This document shows, piece after piece, positions 5,352 to 60,808 of a stretch of 64,000 nucleotides of DNA. Below the pieces are notes generated by a model, which had not been told where the DNA came from, did no database searches, and saw only the letters and a list, made by a program, of their open reading frames with translations. The stretch is taken from assembly GCA_963677495.2 (NCBI GenBank), contig CAXXOU010000004.1, positions 928,001 through 992,000 of the forward strand, in the 5' to 3' direction. A program made the position numbers and the translations under genes. Position 1 is the stretch's first letter. Each line of letters starts with the position of its first letter. The DNA is from Candidatus Cloacimonadales bacterium. GTDB lineage: Bacteria; Cloacimonadota; Cloacimonadia; Cloacimonadales; JAFGVF01.

Positions 5352-5418
5352 AATCCAAAACTCCATCCCTTTAACGGGTTTCTAACGGGAAGCTAATGGG
5401 GAGCAGATTAGTAGTTAG
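5352..5418. repeat. 11-bp-period array, TAACGGG family, copy 1
   Basis: TAA(C/T)GGG at 5372, 5383, 5394; flanks align with the IS-interrupted copy at 58320-58330/60699-60765. Confidence 0.75.
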
Positions 5419-16360: not shown

Positions 16361-16564
16361 TATTAAGTTCATATCATTTCAATATGGTAACAAGACAGTA
16401 TAAATAGGGCTTCCTAGCGTGCAAGATATAATTTCTATAGCATAATGATATAGCAGTATCAAAAGTATATATTAGTCAACTTTGTTCACACTTATTAAAT
16501 CTAGTTTGTAACTATTCCGAGTTGTATTTGTTTATGTTAGTGAAAAATGTTATGAGGAGAAATT

Positions 16565-18016
16565 ATGACTAACTTAAAGAGAATCACATTCCTGATAGCG
16601 ATACTGATGTTAATTCAAGGAATCTGGGCTCAATACCCACTTAATGAAAAAGGACAAAGCCCATTTGTAGATGTTGTTAAGAATAGCGGAGACGCTGTAG
16701 TACAGATAAAGGTAGAGGGTGAAGTTGAAAGCTCAAGGAGTATGACTTCTGAGCTATTTCCATTCTATTTCCCTCAGCAGAGGATGCCACAATCAAGACC
16801 ATTCAAATCAATGGGTAGTGGATTTATTATTAAACATGATAAGAAAAGTAGAGAGACCTGGATTGTAACAAACAACCATGTTGTCGAGTTAGGGGAGAAA
16901 GGCACTATCACAGTTACTCTTGCTGATAAGCGAAAGTATGAAGCTGAGATAGTAGGACTAGATCCGAAAACCGACCTGGCAGTTATCAAGATAGAAGTCG
17001 ATAAAGATGAAAAGATAACATCACTTGATTGGGGAAACTCCAATGCTCTTGATATTGGTGACTGGGTGATCGCAATCGGTAATCCATTCGGAGATGTAGG
17101 TCTTGATAGAACTGTTACAGTTGGTGTTGTTTCAGCTAAAGGACGTTCAGGGTTGAACTTCGGACAAGGTTCCCCTGTTTATCAAGATTATATCCAAACC
17201 GATGCATCTATCAATCCCGGTAACAGTGGAGGTCCCCTTTTAGGGCTATCCGGTGATGTTATTGGTGTTAATGCAGCTATTACAAGTCCTAATGGTGGTA
17301 ACATAGGTATCGGATTCGCGATCCCCTCTACTATCGCTCAGAAAGTAGTTTCAGATATTATTAAAGATAAGGAAGTACACAGAGCTTATCTCGGAATTGC
17401 ACCACAAGAGATTGATGACACTCTCAAAGAGACATTTGACCTGAAAGAGGTAGCTGGTGTTCTTGTCTCACAAGTTGTTGAAGACACTCCGGCAGATAAG
17501 GCAGGACTTAAAAAAGGCGACGTTATTCTTGAAATCGATGACATGAAAGTTCCAAACGTTGCTCTTTTCCGAATCGCAATCGCACATAGACCAATCGGTG
17601 TACCTGTTACAATGAAAATTAACCGTAAAAATAAGATTAAATATTTAAAAGCAACCCTTACTAAGTACCCTGAAGATGGTGAAGCAGGATATATTGCAAA
17701 AGCAGAAGCTGAGACCAAAGAGATTGGTATTGAAGTAGTGAATACTAATAGTGAGATTGGAGAGAAGCTTAAGCTTGATGAGATGGATGGTGTTATAATT
17801 AAATCTATCAAAGATGACTCACCTGCTGAAAAAGCCGGACTCCAGGTAGGACTCGTTATCCTTGAAGTTAATGAAGAGAAAGTAAACTCAGTAAGAGATT
17901 ATGAGAAGAAGATGAAATCAATCCTCAAAAACAAAGATAAAGACAACAGAGTTGTATTGCTTTATGTTGCTGATAAGCAAGGAAACAAGAAGTTCGTTGC
18001 TGTTGAAATTGAATAG
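16565..18016 (+). CDS. degP: DegP/HtrA (Do) serine endoprotease with two PDZ domains
   Basis: TNNHVV, DLAVIK, QTDASINPGNSGGPL, two PDZ repeats, signal peptide. Confidence 0.93.
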   Translation: MTNLKRITFLIAILMLIQGIWAQYPLNEKGQSPFVDVVKNSGDAVVQIKVEGEVESSRSMTSELFPFYFPQQRMPQSRPFKSMGSGFIIKHDKKSRETWIVTNNHVVELGEKGTITVTLADKRKYEAEIVGLDPKTDLAVIKIEVDKDEKITSLDWGNSNALDIGDWVIAIGNPFGDVGLDRTVTVGVVSAKGRSGLNFGQGSPVYQDYIQTDASINPGNSGGPLLGLSGDVIGVNAAITSPNGGNIGIGFAIPSTIAQKVVSDIIKDKEVHRAYLGIAPQEIDDTLKETFDLKEVAGVLVSQVVEDTPADKAGLKKGDVILEIDDMKVPNVALFRIAIAHRPIGVPVTMKINRKNKIKYLKATLTKYPEDGEAGYIAKAEAETKEIGIEVVNTNSEIGEKLKLDEMDGVIIKSIKDDSPAEKAGLQVGLVILEVNEEKVNSVRDYEKKMKSILKNKDKDNRVVLLYVADKQGNKKFVAVEIE

Positions 18017-18034
18017 TAGATAGTGATATAATGA

Positions 18035-18068
18035 ATATAGCGGAAGTCCAAGGACTTCCGCTGTATTT
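18035..18068 (+). terminator. Intrinsic terminator after degP
   Basis: ATATAGCGGAAGTCC-AA-GGACTTCCGCTGTATTT. Confidence 0.8.
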
Positions 18069-18146
18069 GTTGCAACGTAACTCAGCAGTCTCGACTGAGA
18101 ATAACGCCCCGGAGATACGTTTTACGTAACTCAAAAAGCTGCCCTC

Positions 18147-18602
18147 TTATTCCACAATCCAATGCGTCAGATCTTCATATCGTGGAATCATAGGTAACAA
18201 TCCATTATCAACTGCTTCACTGACAGTTCTTATCGGCAAGTCCATATCAACTACTACCTCTGGTGTGACTGTCGTCAAATCTACGGGATAACCGTCTTTC
18301 TTCAATTTAAACATCATCTTCATCAAAAGAGATGCATAACTTGGAGGTCTACATTTGTGCGTATGTGATAGGTTATACCTATCTGTGTAATCTTTCAAAT
18401 CATCGATGTATTCGGGATTTAGATGTGTTTTGTAAACTGCTATGTTTTTAGAAACATCTCCCATATAATGATTATGGTCTGTGATTTCAGGCATTACAAA
18501 TTCTCTAACCCACATGATGTTTCCATCTTCATCACAGCAATAAACAAGTTTTCCATGTTTACCTGATAGTGATTTGAAAGGAAATGCTAAATAACTTTTC
18601 AT
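18147..18602 (-). CDS. Small hypothetical protein (151 aa) with an N-terminal SLSGKHGKLVY motif
   Basis: Intact ORF with a strong AAGGAG RBS; the motif recalls DUF6266-like small FCB-group proteins (from memory, unverified). Confidence 0.75.
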   Translation of the reverse strand: MKSYLAFPFKSLSGKHGKLVYCCDEDGNIMWVREFVMPEITDHNHYMGDVSKNIAVYKTHLNPEYIDDLKDYTDRYNLSHTHKCRPPSYASLLMKMMFKLKKDGYPVDLTTVTPEVVVDMDLPIRTVSEAVDNGLLPMIPRYEDLTHWIVE

Positions 18603-18726
18603 TTTGATCTCCTTTTTTTCCTTTTCACTATCCCTTGCTCACAAAACCTTTAATTTAGTCACAAACATCCAAACTTATTTTAAAAACTTACAAATATCTG
18701 TTAATTTCTGCTTCTCTGTATCTTAG

Positions 18727-18884
18727 TTTTCTCTCTTCTCTCAGCAGTAATAAGTGATTTTATACTAGTTCTAGCTTGGTCTTATGTTGGAATAATCTTA
18801 GTAATTAGGCCAAGGATAGGCCAAGTGTTTGCCAGGAATTTACCAAGTGTTTGCTAAGAATTAATGCCGAGAGAAGAGGGGAAA
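18727..18884. repeat. 11-bp-period dyad array, CTTGG/CCAAG family, enclosed in a ~25-bp inverted repeat
   Basis: CTTGG-like at 18775, 18786, 18797; CCAAG-like at 18810, 18821, 18832, 18843, 18854; outer arms TTTTCTCTCTTCTCTCAGCAGTAAT / ATTAATGCCGAGAGAAGAGGGGAAA. Confidence 0.85.
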
Positions 18885-19036
18885 GTGAAACAGATTTTCC
18901 TGTATTGATAGTGTTTAAAAGGAACAGAAGGGTATAAACATACTGTCATATTAAGTTAACTAAGACTATTACAGAATTATGTAATCTCAATAGTAATCTT
19001 TTACCGATGATACTAGTACCGTTTCGATTGAATTAC

Positions 19037-19067
19037 AAAAAAACGGGAAGCATTTCTGCTTCCCGTT
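19037..19067 (-). terminator. Intrinsic terminator
   Basis: A-tract-CGGGAAGCA-TTTC-TGCTTCCCG. Confidence 0.85.
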
Positions 19068-19085
19068 ACTATTCTATGTAATTTA

Positions 19086-19919
19086 TTAGAATAAATTGTA
19101 TGTTACAGCAACACCGAGTGTTTCTTTGTAATAGATATCTTCATCGATTTCTTTGTCATAATTGAGTTCGAAGTAGAAACCTACACCGACATACTTCATG
19201 ACTTGAATAGTAAGATCATTTTTCCACTGTACATCAAGAGCTTTCCATTCATCCATATCTTCATATAAACCATCAGCTTCTGAGTTGATTAAAGCTTGAT
19301 AGAGACGTAATTCAGATTTGAACTTTGCCATTTTTCCCATGAATACTTCAGAATATTTAGTTACAGATTCGATACCAGAGTCGATAATTGTTGTTTGTCC
19401 TCTTGTCGCAAACTGTCTTGCAGCCCAACCTAATCTGCTGTGAAACTCTCTGTTTTCAAGTTTTACAAAGTATTTTCCAATACCAACAGCTTCAGACCAA
19501 AGGTTTGTATCGAAGAGTTCATTTTCCATGTTTGTGAAATATGTTTCATCTCTAACTGAAGCAAAGAGTGTATAGTGTTTGCTTACATTAAAATCAAAAA
19601 TTGACTCTAAAACGATCTGGTCTTCTGCTTCAGTTGGTTTAAGCCATTCTTCAGTAGTCTTGTTATATGTATGTTTCTGTCCCCATTTCAACTCAGCAGT
19701 ATTAGTCCAATATACTAATTCTGAAAGTGGTCTTTCAGCTGACATATTGACTCTTGCTACCCAATCGATTGCACTTTCTTCATCTCCATTCCAATTGTCA
19801 CTATAATAGCTTTGGTTAAGTAATAGATTTAGGTCACCTTTCACAACCCAAGGTGTTTGTGCGAGCAACATAGATAAACCCATAATTAAAATAAATAAAA
19901 CGGATAGTTTCTTAAACAT
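19086..19919 (-). CDS. Outer-membrane beta-barrel protein (DUF3078-like)
   Basis: Signal peptide, LLLNQSYYSDNWNG motif, amphipathic strands, terminal VTYNLF. Confidence 0.75.
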   Translation of the reverse strand: MFKKLSVLFILIMGLSMLLAQTPWVVKGDLNLLLNQSYYSDNWNGDEESAIDWVARVNMSAERPLSELVYWTNTAELKWGQKHTYNKTTEEWLKPTEAEDQIVLESIFDFNVSKHYTLFASVRDETYFTNMENELFDTNLWSEAVGIGKYFVKLENREFHSRLGWAARQFATRGQTTIIDSGIESVTKYSEVFMGKMAKFKSELRLYQALINSEADGLYEDMDEWKALDVQWKNDLTIQVMKYVGVGFYFELNYDKEIDEDIYYKETLGVAVTYNLF

Positions 19920-19952
19920 ATCTCCTCCTTTTTGTTCAGGTAAATATTATCC

Positions 19953-19993
19953 AAAAAAAAGAAGAGGGCAAGAAATATTTCATTCTTGCCCTT
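19953..19993 (-). terminator. Probable terminator of lysS
   Basis: AGGGCAAGAA...TTCTTGCCCT stem with a nearby A-tract. Confidence 0.65.
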
Positions 19994-20016
19994 AATATTT
20001 GTTAAGTTATGATTAA

Positions 20017-21513
20017 CTATTCCGGTTTCATTGTAGGGAAGAGGATAACCTCTTTTATTGATTCATTTTCAGTTAAAAGCATAACTAGACGGTCGATACC
20101 GATACCAAGTCCACCTGTTGGAGGCATGCCATATTCCATCGCTTCCAAGAAGTCTTCATCTATAACGTTTGCTTCTAAATCTCCAAGCTCTCTTAGCTTA
20201 GATTGTGACTCAAGACGTTCTCTTTGATCAATCGGGTCATTCAATTCTGTGAATGCATTGGCAAATTCGTAACCGGCAATAAAGAGTTCAAAACGCTCTG
20301 TGAACATTGGGTCACCCGGTTTTGCTTTTGCCAGAGGAGAGATCTCTTTCGGATGATCAATCACAAAGGTAGGTTGAATAAGCTTATGCTCTGCAAAATG
20401 TTCAAAGATTTCAGCGATAAGTTTTCCTGAACCTGCACCTTTAGGAATCTCGATGTTCTTCTCTTTGCAAAAAGCAGATAATTCTTCAAAACTATATCCA
20501 CTTACATCAACACCTGCATGCTCTTCAATGAGCTCAAGCATTGTAGCTCTACGGAAAGGAGTTTTAAGAGAAACCTCGTGTCCTGCATAAGTTACATCTG
20601 TGTTGCCATTAACTTTTGCAGCTCCTTGACTGAAGATATCTTCAGTAATCTTCATCATGCCTTCAAGGTTTGAATATGCTTCATAGAGCTCAATAAGAGT
20701 AAACTCAGGATTATGAGTTCTATCCATACCTTCGTTGCGGAAATTCTTTCCAATCTCATAGACTTTCTCATAACCACCGATGATGAGTCTTTTTAAGTAA
20801 AGCTCAGTAGCGATTCTGAGATAAAGGTCAGTTCCAAGTGTATTATGATGAGTGATGAATGGTCTGGCATTAGCGCCACCATACAAAGGCTGAAGAGTAG
20901 GTGTTTCAACTTCAATATATCCGATTCCATCAAGGTAGGTTCTTACAAATGATACGATTCTGGAACGTTTAACGAAAGTTTCTTTGTTCTCAGGATTAAG
21001 AAGTAGGTCTAAATAACGCTTTCTATATCTTAGCTCAATATCATTGAACTCGTCATAACGCACAGCTTTTCCATCCACTATTTTCTCTTTAACAGTTGGA
21101 ATAGGGCGGATGTTCTTACTTAGCATAGTAACTTTACTAACAAGAATTGAGTACTGACCACGTTGAGTCATGAAAGCGGTTCCGTTTATCTGTACGAAAT
21201 CACTAAGGTCACAGAGTTTGAAAACTTCATAGTTCTCATCACCAACTCCGTCTTTCTTAACAAACAGCTGAATCTTACCAGTCATGTCTGTTAATTGAGC
21301 AAATCCAACTTTGCCCTGACGACGCATAGCGGTGAGACGACCGGTTACGATAACAGCCTCTTCGTTCTTTAAGTACTCCTCTTCATTATCAAGTAAATCC
21401 TTGATGTAATGAGTCCTTTCACAACTTGTAGGATATGGGTTGATTCCCAAATCTCTAATCTTTTGCAATTTCTGCTTTTTGAGACCAATAACCTGTTTTA
21501 CATTCTGTTCCAT
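20017..21513 (-). CDS. lysS: Lysyl-tRNA synthetase (class II)
   Basis: RYRKRYLDL, YGGANARPF, LRIATELYLKRL, FRNEG..THNPEF, YGMPPTGGLGIGIDRL. Confidence 0.98.
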   Translation of the reverse strand: MEQNVKQVIGLKKQKLQKIRDLGINPYPTSCERTHYIKDLLDNEEEYLKNEEAVIVTGRLTAMRRQGKVGFAQLTDMTGKIQLFVKKDGVGDENYEVFKLCDLSDFVQINGTAFMTQRGQYSILVSKVTMLSKNIRPIPTVKEKIVDGKAVRYDEFNDIELRYRKRYLDLLLNPENKETFVKRSRIVSFVRTYLDGIGYIEVETPTLQPLYGGANARPFITHHNTLGTDLYLRIATELYLKRLIIGGYEKVYEIGKNFRNEGMDRTHNPEFTLIELYEAYSNLEGMMKITEDIFSQGAAKVNGNTDVTYAGHEVSLKTPFRRATMLELIEEHAGVDVSGYSFEELSAFCKEKNIEIPKGAGSGKLIAEIFEHFAEHKLIQPTFVIDHPKEISPLAKAKPGDPMFTERFELFIAGYEFANAFTELNDPIDQRERLESQSKLRELGDLEANVIDEDFLEAMEYGMPPTGGLGIGIDRLVMLLTENESIKEVILFPTMKPE

Positions 21514-21921
21514 CTTAGCTCCACATTGTTAGTTAAATTAGTTTGCGGTTATCTGTCGTGTATCTGTGGGGGATAGTATATGACAGTGATAACCGCAATT
21601 AAAATCTTTATTACATGACAATTTGTGAATCACATCTTCGATGTCAATAAAGATTTCTATTGAGTACACAATATACGTAGGTGCATCTAGTCACTCAACT
21701 CTTAAAGGAGTTATTCAGAGTGAAGTGTGCGAACGAAGAAGGACTTCTTTAATATCCGAAACTGAAAAGCGAAAGTTCTTGATGCGAGAACGAAGTTGAC
21801 TTCGAGTTATCGGAATTAGCGATTCACACTTCGTTGAGAATCACTTCTTCCTTGGTCATCTTGCAATTGCATCTACGCAGTTGATGCATTCCATATTTAA
21901 ACCATCTACCAAATCGTAGTC

Positions 21922-22239
21922 ATCCCACTATTTTCCCACTGTGCATGCACTGTGCACCCAGTGAAACAGTGGGTTGGCAGTGCCTTCACAGTGGGGCCAC
22001 AGTGCGTACACCGTGCGTTGGTAAAAAGTGCAGTGAAAGGCAGTAAAAAGGGCAAAAAATGTAGCTAAGTCATTGCAAAAGGCACTGAGTATGTTATTCT
22101 AAAGCTGTCGCAATAGCGACCGAAGGGAGATGGGCGAATAGCGAAAATGGCTATAATCAATTTCGTGACAAGACGCACCAACGCAGATGGTGCACTCCAT
22201 AGTTGTAAGTCATTGTAAAATGCACTGCGTATGTCATCC
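21922..22239. repeat. Composite repeat, copy 1: CACTG/CAGTG 11-bp dyad array plus two ~30-bp repeats and one spacer
   Basis: Homologous to 47917-48385; CACT at 21926/21937/21948, CAGTG at 21967/21978/21989/22000; TAAGTCATTG..GCACTG.GTATGT at 22066 and 22206. Confidence 0.9.
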
Positions 22240-23011: not shown

Positions 23012-23101
23012 ATTCCCCTCTCGTAGAGGGGTACCGTTGAAACCGGTGGGTGTTTCTATTCCCCTCTTGTAGAGGGGTGCCGACTTGTCGGTGGGGTGTT
23101 T
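23012..23101 (+). repeat. Two tandem ~44-bp double-hairpin repeats (DUF559-associated REP-like family)
   Basis: ATTCCCCTCTnGTAGAGGGGTrCCG-n-CGGTGGG(G)TGTT at 23012 and 23058. Confidence 0.9.
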
Positions 23102-23118
23102 TCCCTAAAGAGTCGATA

Positions 23119-23520
23119 ATGAATAATAAATATAAAAAATACAAGAAGCTACCGTATAATCCTAAGTTGAAAGAGAAAGCAAAAGCTCTTCGGAAAGCAG
23201 GCAATCTTTCAGAAGCACTTCTTTGGCTTCCGCTAAAAAAGAAGAATTTGCTAGGACTAGATTTTCACAGGCAGAAGATTATCGGGAACTATATTGTTGA
23301 TTTTTATTGTCCTGAATTACAATTAGTTGTTGAAATAGACGGTGTTAGTCACGATTTTAAGATTGAATATGATGAACGTAGAGAAAAGTATCTAGAGTCT
23401 TTAGATTTGACTATAATACATTATAGTGATATAGATGTTAAGAGGAATATGAGTGGAGTTATTGACGATTTGATTGATAGATGCGAGAAGTTGATGTGGA
23501 GAGGTGCGCGGTTTGAGTAA
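23119..23520 (+). CDS. DUF559 / Vsr-like PD-(D/E)xK endonuclease domain protein
   Basis: YNPKLKEKAKALRK..SEALLW..FHRQKIIGNYIVDFYCPELQLVVEIDGVSH..DERR; the longer ORF start lies inside the repeat. Confidence 0.9.
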   Translation: MNNKYKKYKKLPYNPKLKEKAKALRKAGNLSEALLWLPLKKKNLLGLDFHRQKIIGNYIVDFYCPELQLVVEIDGVSHDFKIEYDERREKYLESLDLTIIHYSDIDVKRNMSGVIDDLIDRCEKLMWRGARFE

Positions 23521-27527: not shown

Positions 27528-27546
27528 TAGTAAAAGTCTGGTTGTG

Positions 27547-27634
27547 AACCACGAAATAACCACGGGCAAACCACGCCCATACTACGCGAGCCGTGGTTAA
27601 CCCCTGGTTTACACGTGGTCAACCCGTGGTAAAG
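27547..27634. repeat. 11-bp-period dyad array, CCACG/CGTGG family, copy 1
   Basis: CCACG-like at 27549, 27560, 27571, 27582; CGTGG-like at 27592, 27603, 27614, 27625. Confidence 0.9.
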
Positions 27635-27665
27635 TATGACAGATGTGTTGGAAATTGGTGAGGGG

Positions 27666-38155: not shown

Positions 38156-38346
38156 AATCTCCTCTATTTGGTCATTGTTTTAGTAATGGAACAAATTACA
38201 GAAATATTGTCAATTAGTTTTAAAGATTGAATCAGATGTAAATACTGACAAACCGACTAGCCTAATATCACTACTAGTTTTTCTTATGTGTGAGATGTAA
38301 TTTGCAGATAAAAGTGTGTTAGCTGTCAGGTTCAAATGTTATATTT

Positions 38347-38428
38347 AACCACGGATGAACCACGGGTATTCCACGCCCAAACCACGCGAGTCGTGGTTAA
38401 CCCGCGGTTTACCCGTGGTCAAGTATGA
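38347..38428. repeat. 11-bp-period dyad array, CCACG/CGTGG family, copy 2
   Basis: CCACG at 38349, 38360, 38371, 38382; CGTGG-like at 38392, 38403, 38414. Confidence 0.9.
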
Positions 38429-47560: not shown

Positions 47561-47916
47561 TCTCATCTCCTTTTCGAGTTTTATTTGTTGTTTATATATA
47601 TCAAAAAATCTTCCATACTTTCGTTTATGACAGCGAAATTATAAACCGTAAAGTGTCAATTATTTTCCGTGTTTTCTGTGATGATTTTCACAATAATCTT
47701 AACAATTATCTTTAACACTTAAGCAACAATCCTATAAAATACTATATGTCATCTTGTTATCAGGTTTTGAAAAGTCATTAAATGGCTATCAATCAACTAT
47801 GAATTTGTTTTTCACTATAGCTTCTGCTTAAATCTTATTCTAACTTCAATCATAAAGATACCATCATATGCTTGTTCATTGTTCTCCCAATCTAAACTAT
47901 CTAACAAAACCGTGTT

Positions 47917-48385
47917 ATCCCACTGTTTTCCCACTGTGCACGCACTGTGCACCCAGTGAAACAGTGGGTTGGCAGTGCCTTCACAGTGGGGACACAGTGC
48001 AAACACAGTGCGTTGATAGAATGTGCAGTAAAAGAGAGCTAAAAGGACAATAAACGCGGCTAAGTTATTGTAAATGGCACTGTGTATATCTCTTTCGGAC
48101 TTGCTCCGCAGCGAAGCGTGGGGCGAGAACGAAAACTTAGGAAAAGAGACTTCGAAGTACATTTCAGGAAGTCCGTTGCTTTATCAGGCCGACAAACTCC
48201 CTGAAATGCCGTAAGTTGTTGCAAATCGCGCTGTGTATGTATTCGGATATTGTTGCAATAGTGACCAAAGGGAGATAGGTGAATAGTGAAAAGTAGCAAT
48301 AATCCAATTCGTGACAAGACGCACCAACGCAGATGGTGCACTCCATAGTTGTAAGTTATTGCAAATCGCACTGCAAATGTCATCC
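47917..48385. repeat. Composite repeat, copy 2: CACTG/CAGTG 11-bp dyad array plus three ~30-bp repeats and two spacers
   Basis: CACTG at 47921/47932/47943; CAGTG at 47962/47973/47984/47995/48006; repeats at 48061, 48212, 48352. Confidence 0.9.
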
Positions 48386-60698: not shown

Positions 60699-60765
60699 CA
60701 TCCATCATAACGAGTTTCTAACGGGGAGCTAACGGGAAGCTAACGGGGAGCGATTGAGTAGTAAG
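60699..60765. repeat. 11-bp-period array, TAACGGG family, copy 2 (right part; left flank cut by IS21)
   Basis: TAACG(A/G)G at 60708, 60719, 60730, 60741. Confidence 0.85.
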
Positions 60766-60808
60766 AAGATTAAATTGGATATCGAAGCATGGATTGTATC
60801 TACTTTTC

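Follow-up and report, generated by a model that had tools for sequence, protein, structure and literature searches.

Candidate cognate pairing between a multicopy Cloacimonadota protein family and 11-bp-phased dyad arrays

We analyzed a 64,000-nucleotide stretch of a Candidatus Cloacimonadales bacterium genome (assembly GCA_963677495.2, contig CAXXOU010000004.1, positions 928,001 to 992,000 of the forward strand; hereafter the window), in which a small gene, P0001, lies next to an array of short words spaced 11 bp apart. Genes of the P0001 family often carry such arrays upstream, in this genome and in its relatives, and the sequence of the array follows the clade of the protein. Judged from these sequence comparisons, P0001 probably binds its own type of element specifically and is a candidate cognate array-binding protein. 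The features of the locus, in window coordinates, are listed below.

18147..18602, minus strand: P0001 gene, 151 aa, member of a multicopy Cloacimonadota family and candidate array reader
18609..18614, minus strand: Shine-Dalgarno sequence AAGGAG, 6 nt ahead of the P0001 ATG
18677..18704, minus strand: candidate sigma-70-like promoter lying between the element and P0001, 10/12 matches, such sites in the region being not above chance
18039..18062, unstranded: terminator-like hairpin common to the 3' ends of degP and P0001
19042..19067, unstranded: terminator-like hairpin of the upstream DUF3078 gene, isolating element plus gene
18727..18884, unstranded: dyad element of ~150 bp, CCAAG family, with 39 genomic copies, 30 of them in the GGCCAAG subfamily of this copy
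18727..18751, unstranded: left terminal arm (CAGCAGTAAT anchor)
18775..18801, unstranded: short array arm, CTTGG-type words in 11-bp steps at 18775, 18786 and 18797
18797..18814, unstranded: central dyad with orientation flip (word, 8-bp spacer, inverted word)
18810..18858, unstranded: long array arm, five CCAAG-type words in 11-bp steps at 18810, 18821, 18832, 18843 and 18854
18860..18884, unstranded: right terminal arm, pairing with 18727-18751

The original prediction had described a 151-aa gene with a strong ribosome-binding site, flanked by degP on one side and an outer-membrane protein gene on the other with terminators on both sides, and all of these were present, with degP at 16565-18016 (plus strand) and the DUF3078 outer-membrane-type gene at 19086-19919 (minus strand). 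The CTTGG/CCAAG array was likewise seen where it had been placed, 125-282 bp upstream and inside a 25-bp inverted repeat (18727-18751/18860-18884) with 21 of 25 positions paired; the repeat corresponds to the ends of a dispersed element, and the three short-arm words read CTTGG, GTTGG and CTTAG. The original prediction called it the only array in the window beside a small standalone gene of unknown function; the window holds seven arrays and P0001 as the sole gene of its family. P0001 is a real gene under purifying selection: compared with an 82%-identical paralogue, it differs at 22, 12 and 68 sites in codon positions 1, 2 and 3, respectively. Short-read contigs matched 16500-20728 with zero differences, and the reading of the locus as an assembly artifact was rejected on that basis; the contigs came from four runs on a single sample, which may be the source. 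A conserved function of the degP and outer-membrane protein locus was rejected because the two genes lie 93 kb apart in the relative G001.

Other signals surround the gene. An 11/12 sigma-70-like promoter with an extended -10 (18003-18032, plus strand) sits at the end of degP and is oriented to read across the hairpin into the P0001 3' end, where it might yield an antisense RNA, and a distinct short repeat with ~14 genomic copies occupies 18075-18135, between the terminator and the P0001 stop codon. A promoter-like TATA..TAGAGG motif, which occurs 52 times in the genome, precedes six of 22 paralogues (C4:23771, 453917, 1071359 and 1447755, C1:775355 and C3:297242 in this genome, G000) and is absent before P0001.

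P0001 had been described as an orphan, a label that does not apply: the genome carries 22 paralogues of full length, one of them interrupted by an internal stop, plus two fragments, and their neighbors are unrelated and varied. Among 31 genomes searched, 22 contained the family in 1-37 copies each, a range taken from whole-genome searches because the family alignment is too divergent for collection scans; 161 representatives were collected at E values up to 0.001. The 37 family matches in G027 (L051-L070) include an expanded clade of 181-aa proteins. Its copies are nearly identical and mostly have no array, a pattern suggesting that they were amplified recently by a different route. The hotspots in which the paralogues lie are rich in other repeats and mobile genes. 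Region 23050-23520 and the flanks of many paralogues are hotspots shared with other repeat-flanked small genes, including DUF559 and genes that we take to be of four-helix-bundle and IS200/RAYT types, and these hotspots also contain 7-bp tandem and REP-like repeats.

The AlphaFold monomer of P0001 (pLDDT 96) places three N-terminal strands ahead of helices. Pfam yielded no match for P0001 and weak HMG-box matches for two of 108 members, PHROGs and PDB sequence searches returned nothing usable for the family, and no phage record matched below an E value of 7. Foldseek searches of PDB and viral structures gave no usable structural match, the best E value (0.15) being that of the DUF6266 domain against an uncharacterized viral protein, and a wide VIA-align structure search gave no Z score of 5 or more. 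Several ribbon-helix-helix chains aligned at Z scores of 2.7-3.7 over about 45 residues, confined to residues 45-108 of P0001, which is not a fold assignment. Such blank results from family and structure searches are no proof of a new fold. An invariant catalytic set (HUH, DDE or other) was sought across the family and none was found. P0001 is acidic (net charge -5); in hand-picked sets, median net charge was +4 for array-associated members (n = 40) versus -1 for others (n = 21).

The array had been regarded as P0001's own, a view that was abandoned together with that of a private operator unique to the gene, because the element is one of 39 dispersed copies in the genome. The CCAAG family splits into subtypes of 30, eight and one copies, comprising 30 of GGCCAAG type and eight of AACCCAAG type. 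The first of these adjoins P0001; the second adjoins the 82% paralogue and that paralogue's orthologue in G001, which keep it in different neighborhoods. Copies with both anchors (n = 34) span 128 bp in 31 cases, 139 bp in two and 117 bp in one. Median identity between copies is 72% while length varies by only ±11 bp; from this change by whole units only, we infer selection on spacing. The 25-bp terminal arms are conserved across copies, so that MITE-like terminal inverted repeats are present, and 20 of the 39 copies lie in divergent gaps.

All six copies of a 1.36-kb IS3-type insertion sequence (≥99.9% identical; C2:141739-143089, C2:234320-235670, C2:359475-360825, C3:92609-93959, C4:220988-222338 and C4:1237819-1239169 in G000) lie within ~45 bp of a CCAAG right arm. 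The right end of the insertion sequence terminates in ACTGCA, like the element arm, although six common bases are too few to assign a transposase. The association suggests that the insertion sequence inserts beside end-like targets, as IS911 reportedly does.

Periodic arrays are widespread in this genome, where 320 loci were detected at a lag of 11 bp compared to 6, 17 and 0 at lags of 10, 12 and 13 bp. Array loci numbered 281, of which 250 were intergenic, compared to 0-1 in three shuffles of the intergenic DNA. They comprise many dispersed families with different words, and 37% of gaps of at least 250 bp contain an array. Other arrays in the window are solo copies:

5370..5415, unstranded: solo array of the TAACG family, with a second copy at 60701-60766; cognate gene not found
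21920..22021, unstranded: solo array of the CACTG family, with another copy at 47905-48016 and without a convincing cognate gene
27544..27637, unstranded: solo array of the CCACG family, with a second copy at 38344-38388 and a family copy upstream of paralogue C4:453917

CACTG is the largest family (67 copies) and TAACG has about 20. The nearest gene-linked CACTG copy is distant, at -899 from paralogue 1447755, whose 91%-identical orthologue in G001 has no CACTG array although G001 does contain CACTG copies. No partner gene was found for TAACG, and a search for divergent readers of both families found none; similarly, G001 holds CGGGA copies without a matching gene. The suggestion that the remaining arrays are solo copies served by paralogues elsewhere therefore survives in part, in that 22 paralogues do exist, but CACTG and TAACG have no detectable one. 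Among small ORFs near arrays, the P0001 family formed the largest cluster (n = 14), followed by IS3 transposases.

Across 500 kb compared with G001, none of 185 syntenic adjacencies shared an array and two had an array only in this genome, which indicates that solo copies turn over; empty orthologous sites were seen for elements. Half of the synteny breaks (19/38, counting two gaps per break and not length-matched) adjoined an array. The P0001 locus is itself one of the array-adjoining breaks between G000 and G001 (L236-L255, L101-L105). In a separate association, the GTCAC, CCTCC, CCACC and TTGAT families abut an inverted pair of the 9-mer TTATCCACA, which we take to be the DnaA box (for example, C3:25042-25100, C1:203177-203231 and C4:693296-693347 in G000), whereas the CCAAG family does not.

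Two of the checks put forward with the original prediction, enrichment of arrays upstream of homologues and covariation of the core with protein clade, were run. Within this genome, an array occurred within 1 kb upstream of 14 of the 22 paralogues and within 1 kb downstream of none. Of the length-matched control genes, 30-48% had an array within 600 bp, compared to 2/7, 5/8 and 3/6 of paralogues; the crude position test fails in this genome because it is saturated with arrays. An array-associated clade (SH-aLRT 97, from a quick IQ-TREE search) had arrays within 1.3 kb of 14 of 15 members compared to one of seven remaining paralogues (Fisher P = 6e-4), a split drawn after seeing the data. Whole clades of the protein family are without arrays.

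In six relatives with low background, arrays were found in the upstream 1 kb of 22 of 63 homologues, compared to 21 of 960 random 1-kb windows (GC filter of 0.3; homologues were those fetched, a subset of all). Downstream, where a shorter window of up to 400 bp was used, there were none in 82. Sampling 300 kb from four genomes that lack the protein revealed no array of 11-bp period, and 200 kb from two genomes with fetched members of an array-less clade contained two AT-rich borderline matches. The pairing of gene and array persists in different gene neighborhoods, a broken gene in G001 retains the array of its clade, and solo copies in G001, G013, G014, G026, G157 and G158 match families that also occur upstream of a gene in the same genome.

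For covariation, we used 104 proteins from seven relatives and this genome, of which 44 had an upstream array. The fraction of protein pairs sharing an array rose with identity, from 0/769 pairs below 40% to 7/125 at 40-50%, 12/36 at 50-65% and 14/16 at ≥65%. Restricting the comparison to cross-genome pairs gave 0/675 in the lowest identity class and 6/7 in the highest. Array and protein distances were correlated (Mantel r = 0.58, 0 of 5,000 permutations, kin being not independent), with counter-cases in three pairs at 59-69% identity that have different arrays. In this genome, the 15 gene-proximal arrays fell into 11-12 families compared to 7.1-7.5 expected by random draws (P = 0.001-0.003); whether all families possess a gene-proximal copy was also tested, without a significant result (P = 0.14-0.45).

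The start of P0001 had been likened to DUF6266, a resemblance that held up as probable remote homology of the N-terminal module and as a shared association with arrays, but not as family membership. Neither P0001 nor any other protein in the genome matched Pfam DUF6266 (PF19781) above the cut-off, DUF6266 was absent from the 25 families shown for 108 members of the P0001 family, and the model matched in two of 151 genomes of the phylum, one over the cut-off; the same model matched 33 and five times in two Bacteroidota genomes, so the search works. Profile alignment of the P0001 family to DUF6266 by hhalign gave probabilities of 26% (E = 7e-4, 98 columns), 31% (E = 5e-4, 58 columns) and 11%, covering the first 60-110 residues and ending by residue 118. 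An HMM of the DUF6266 N terminus recovered six of the 22 paralogues among 24 matches from 26,934 segments, each individually non-significant, and the Atlas feature score was 0.85. Both families consist of multicopy small genes with the N-terminal pattern SGK.G..V...G..Y.R..P...T..Q/N and a predicted strand-strand-strand-helix order at the same positions. They differ in that DUF6266 proteins are about 210 aa (198-position model) whereas the P0001 family ends at ~150 aa, without the C-terminal half of ~100 aa.

DUF6266 loci resemble the P0001 family further in having upstream arrays with locus-specific words and solo copies. In seven Bacteroidota genomes, an 11-bp array lay within 1 kb upstream of 15 of 41 loci (14 distinct arrays; 41 of 46 returned loci, five partial matches having been left out) and downstream of 0/41, compared to 4/400 random windows from three of the seven genomes. 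Two clear solo arrays in this sample matched gene-proximal families of the same genome. The DUF6266 alignment matched no viral contigs, and no paper on DUF6266 function was found in the literature searched. A true DUF6266 gene on a 3-kb contig (L154:337-1462) immediately follows a short tyrosine-recombinase-like gene, and its close relatives also occur on contigs of 0.8-3.6 kb, possibly as a small mobile element.

The short words, one per helical turn and next to a gene, share their geometry with parC and iteron arrays. In the R1 parC-ParR system and in plasmid iterons, words placed once per turn lie beside the gene of a protein that coats them cooperatively and is often autoregulated, and E. 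coli oriC contains oppositely oriented DnaA sites spaced by 11 bp. Unlike parC/ParR or iterons, which occupy one locus per replicon, the arrays here form 281 chromosomal loci of many families, and no partition ATPase, tubulin-like, Rep or origin genes are linked to them. In genomic logic, the closest system is REPIN-RAYT, for which the available text of Bertels and Rainey 2011 (PMC3116915) describes dispersed extragenic palindromic repeats that fall into several groups by sequence, with a different gene for each group next to one of its copies or clusters, and infers gene-repeat co-evolution. Most array groups here similarly have a copy beside their own gene and many solo copies, CACTG and TAACG excepted. 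Unlike RAYTs, the P0001 family does not belong to the IS200-like Y1/HUH transposases (Pfam and PDB sequence searches gave no match, and HUH is not conserved), and the element consists of 11-bp-phased words over about 150 bp rather than two REPs, lies upstream of the gene only and, for CCAAG, occurs mostly in divergent gaps. The BrickBuilt minisatellite MITE of Porphyromonas gingivalis is also an intergenic, multicopy FCB element with internal tandem repeats and inverted ends, but it is described in the available text of PMC4596501 as a single family with a 23-nt unit, and neither a central flip nor a cognate gene appears there, unlike the CCAAG element. The system thus resembles REPIN-RAYT in genomic logic and parC and iterons in geometry and is a member of neither.

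Under the explanation that we favor, the shared N-terminal sheet-plus-helix module of P0001 would recognize the word. By analogy with ParR on parC and DnaA at oriC, the protein might nucleate at the central dyad and coat the element outward, one unit per DNA turn. The gene-proximal copy may be an autoregulatory operator that sets P0001's own expression, a role that would explain the always-upstream position. Gene and word would diverge in concert, so that each paralogue acquires an address of its own, and the solo copies, probably spread by other (host or insertion sequence) machinery because the protein has no recognizable catalytic motif, would offer that paralogue additional docking sites.

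The protein could instead propagate the arrays, as a RAYT-like factor of which each paralogue copies its own element or recruits a recombinase, making the pair a selfish or domesticated replicator. One gene per repeat family would fit the logic of REPIN-RAYT as far as the available text of PMC3116915 describes it, and so would solo copies at non-orthologous sites, synteny breaks adjoining arrays and the absence of arrays from sampled genomes without the gene. We nonetheless consider propagation unlikely given the missing catalytic set, elements on one side of the gene only and abundant families with no partner gene. In addition, a sharp boundary was looked for in the elements and their ends fade gradually, no target-site duplication was identifiable (the empty G001 site being too diverged to read one) and no excision joints were found in short-read contigs from four runs of one sample, a weak test. 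Covariation between linked DNA segments is equally given by plain co-inheritance, which brings in a mobile cassette whose array is read by another protein, such as DnaA, a nucleoid protein or an unlinked transposase, while the small protein is otherwise employed. The TTATCCACA pairs beside several families, the partner-less families, the location of paralogues in hotspots rich in repeats and mobile genes and the acidity of P0001 all agree with such a cassette. What makes it quite unlikely in our judgment is that the word changes completely across two phyla and at <30% protein identity, whereas the upstream position and exact 11-bp period are kept; no one host factor would recognize dozens of words that are unrelated to each other, and the CCAAG element has no 9-mer pair of the TTATCCACA type.

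An A-form helix has 11 bp per turn, so the period of the arrays would also suit an element acting as structured RNA or as a single-stranded DNA hairpin, a guide or scaffold bound by the protein. CCAAG copies do form stable folds, with a median z of about -5.5 for either strand, and complementarity between arms within a copy exceeds that of shuffled arms (33.2 versus 32.3 of 60 pairs, P about 0.001). However, this excess of about one pair in 60 is equal on both strands, which does not favor an RNA stem, only ~55% of arm positions pair, favored variants disrupt pairing in the terminal arm and the Rfam search gave only sub-threshold matches, all of which leave a nucleic acid hairpin very unlikely. 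Lastly, genes and arrays might coincide by chance through accumulating in the same long, repeat-rich intergenic gaps. The high share of long gaps with an array and the lack of excess in the length-matched comparison in this genome are in keeping with chance, which probably accounts for single cases such as 1447755, but it can yield neither family-specific pairing across genomes, nor 15- to 35-fold enrichment in low-background genomes, nor the absence of downstream cases. As a general explanation, chance is largely refuted and we consider it extremely improbable.

Specific binding of each element type by its cognate protein, the reading preferred here, may extend beyond P0001. We tentatively propose, as a possibility that we hold with somewhat less than even confidence, that FCB bacteria carry diversifying protein-DNA address pairs, in which a new-fold module common to the Cloacimonadota family and DUF6266 would read an 11-bp-phased dyad array and co-evolve with the word of that array. 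There could be up to dozens of mutually orthogonal pairs per genome, and the dispersed copies might organize, regulate or rearrange the chromosome. No published description of such gene-paired 11-bp arrays was found in a search that covered the literature outside subscription journals and bioRxiv supplements; the available text of PMC5317091 concerns an unrelated 18-nt palindrome in Caldithrix. If the proteins bind these elements, as is likely, the gene-paired 11-bp system would be an undescribed protein-plus-DNA-address system in two phyla.

If true, this proposal would provide the first function for DUF6266 and for the unnamed Cloacimonadota family, and hundreds of FCB intergenic repeats would be explained as a second gene-partnered repeat system besides REPIN-RAYT, one that is transposase-free. 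Dozens of natural protein-word pairs on one scaffold would form a data set for a recognition code and a source of orthogonal DNA-binding tools. The DUF6266 version is present in culturable Pedobacter strains, where direct testing is possible.
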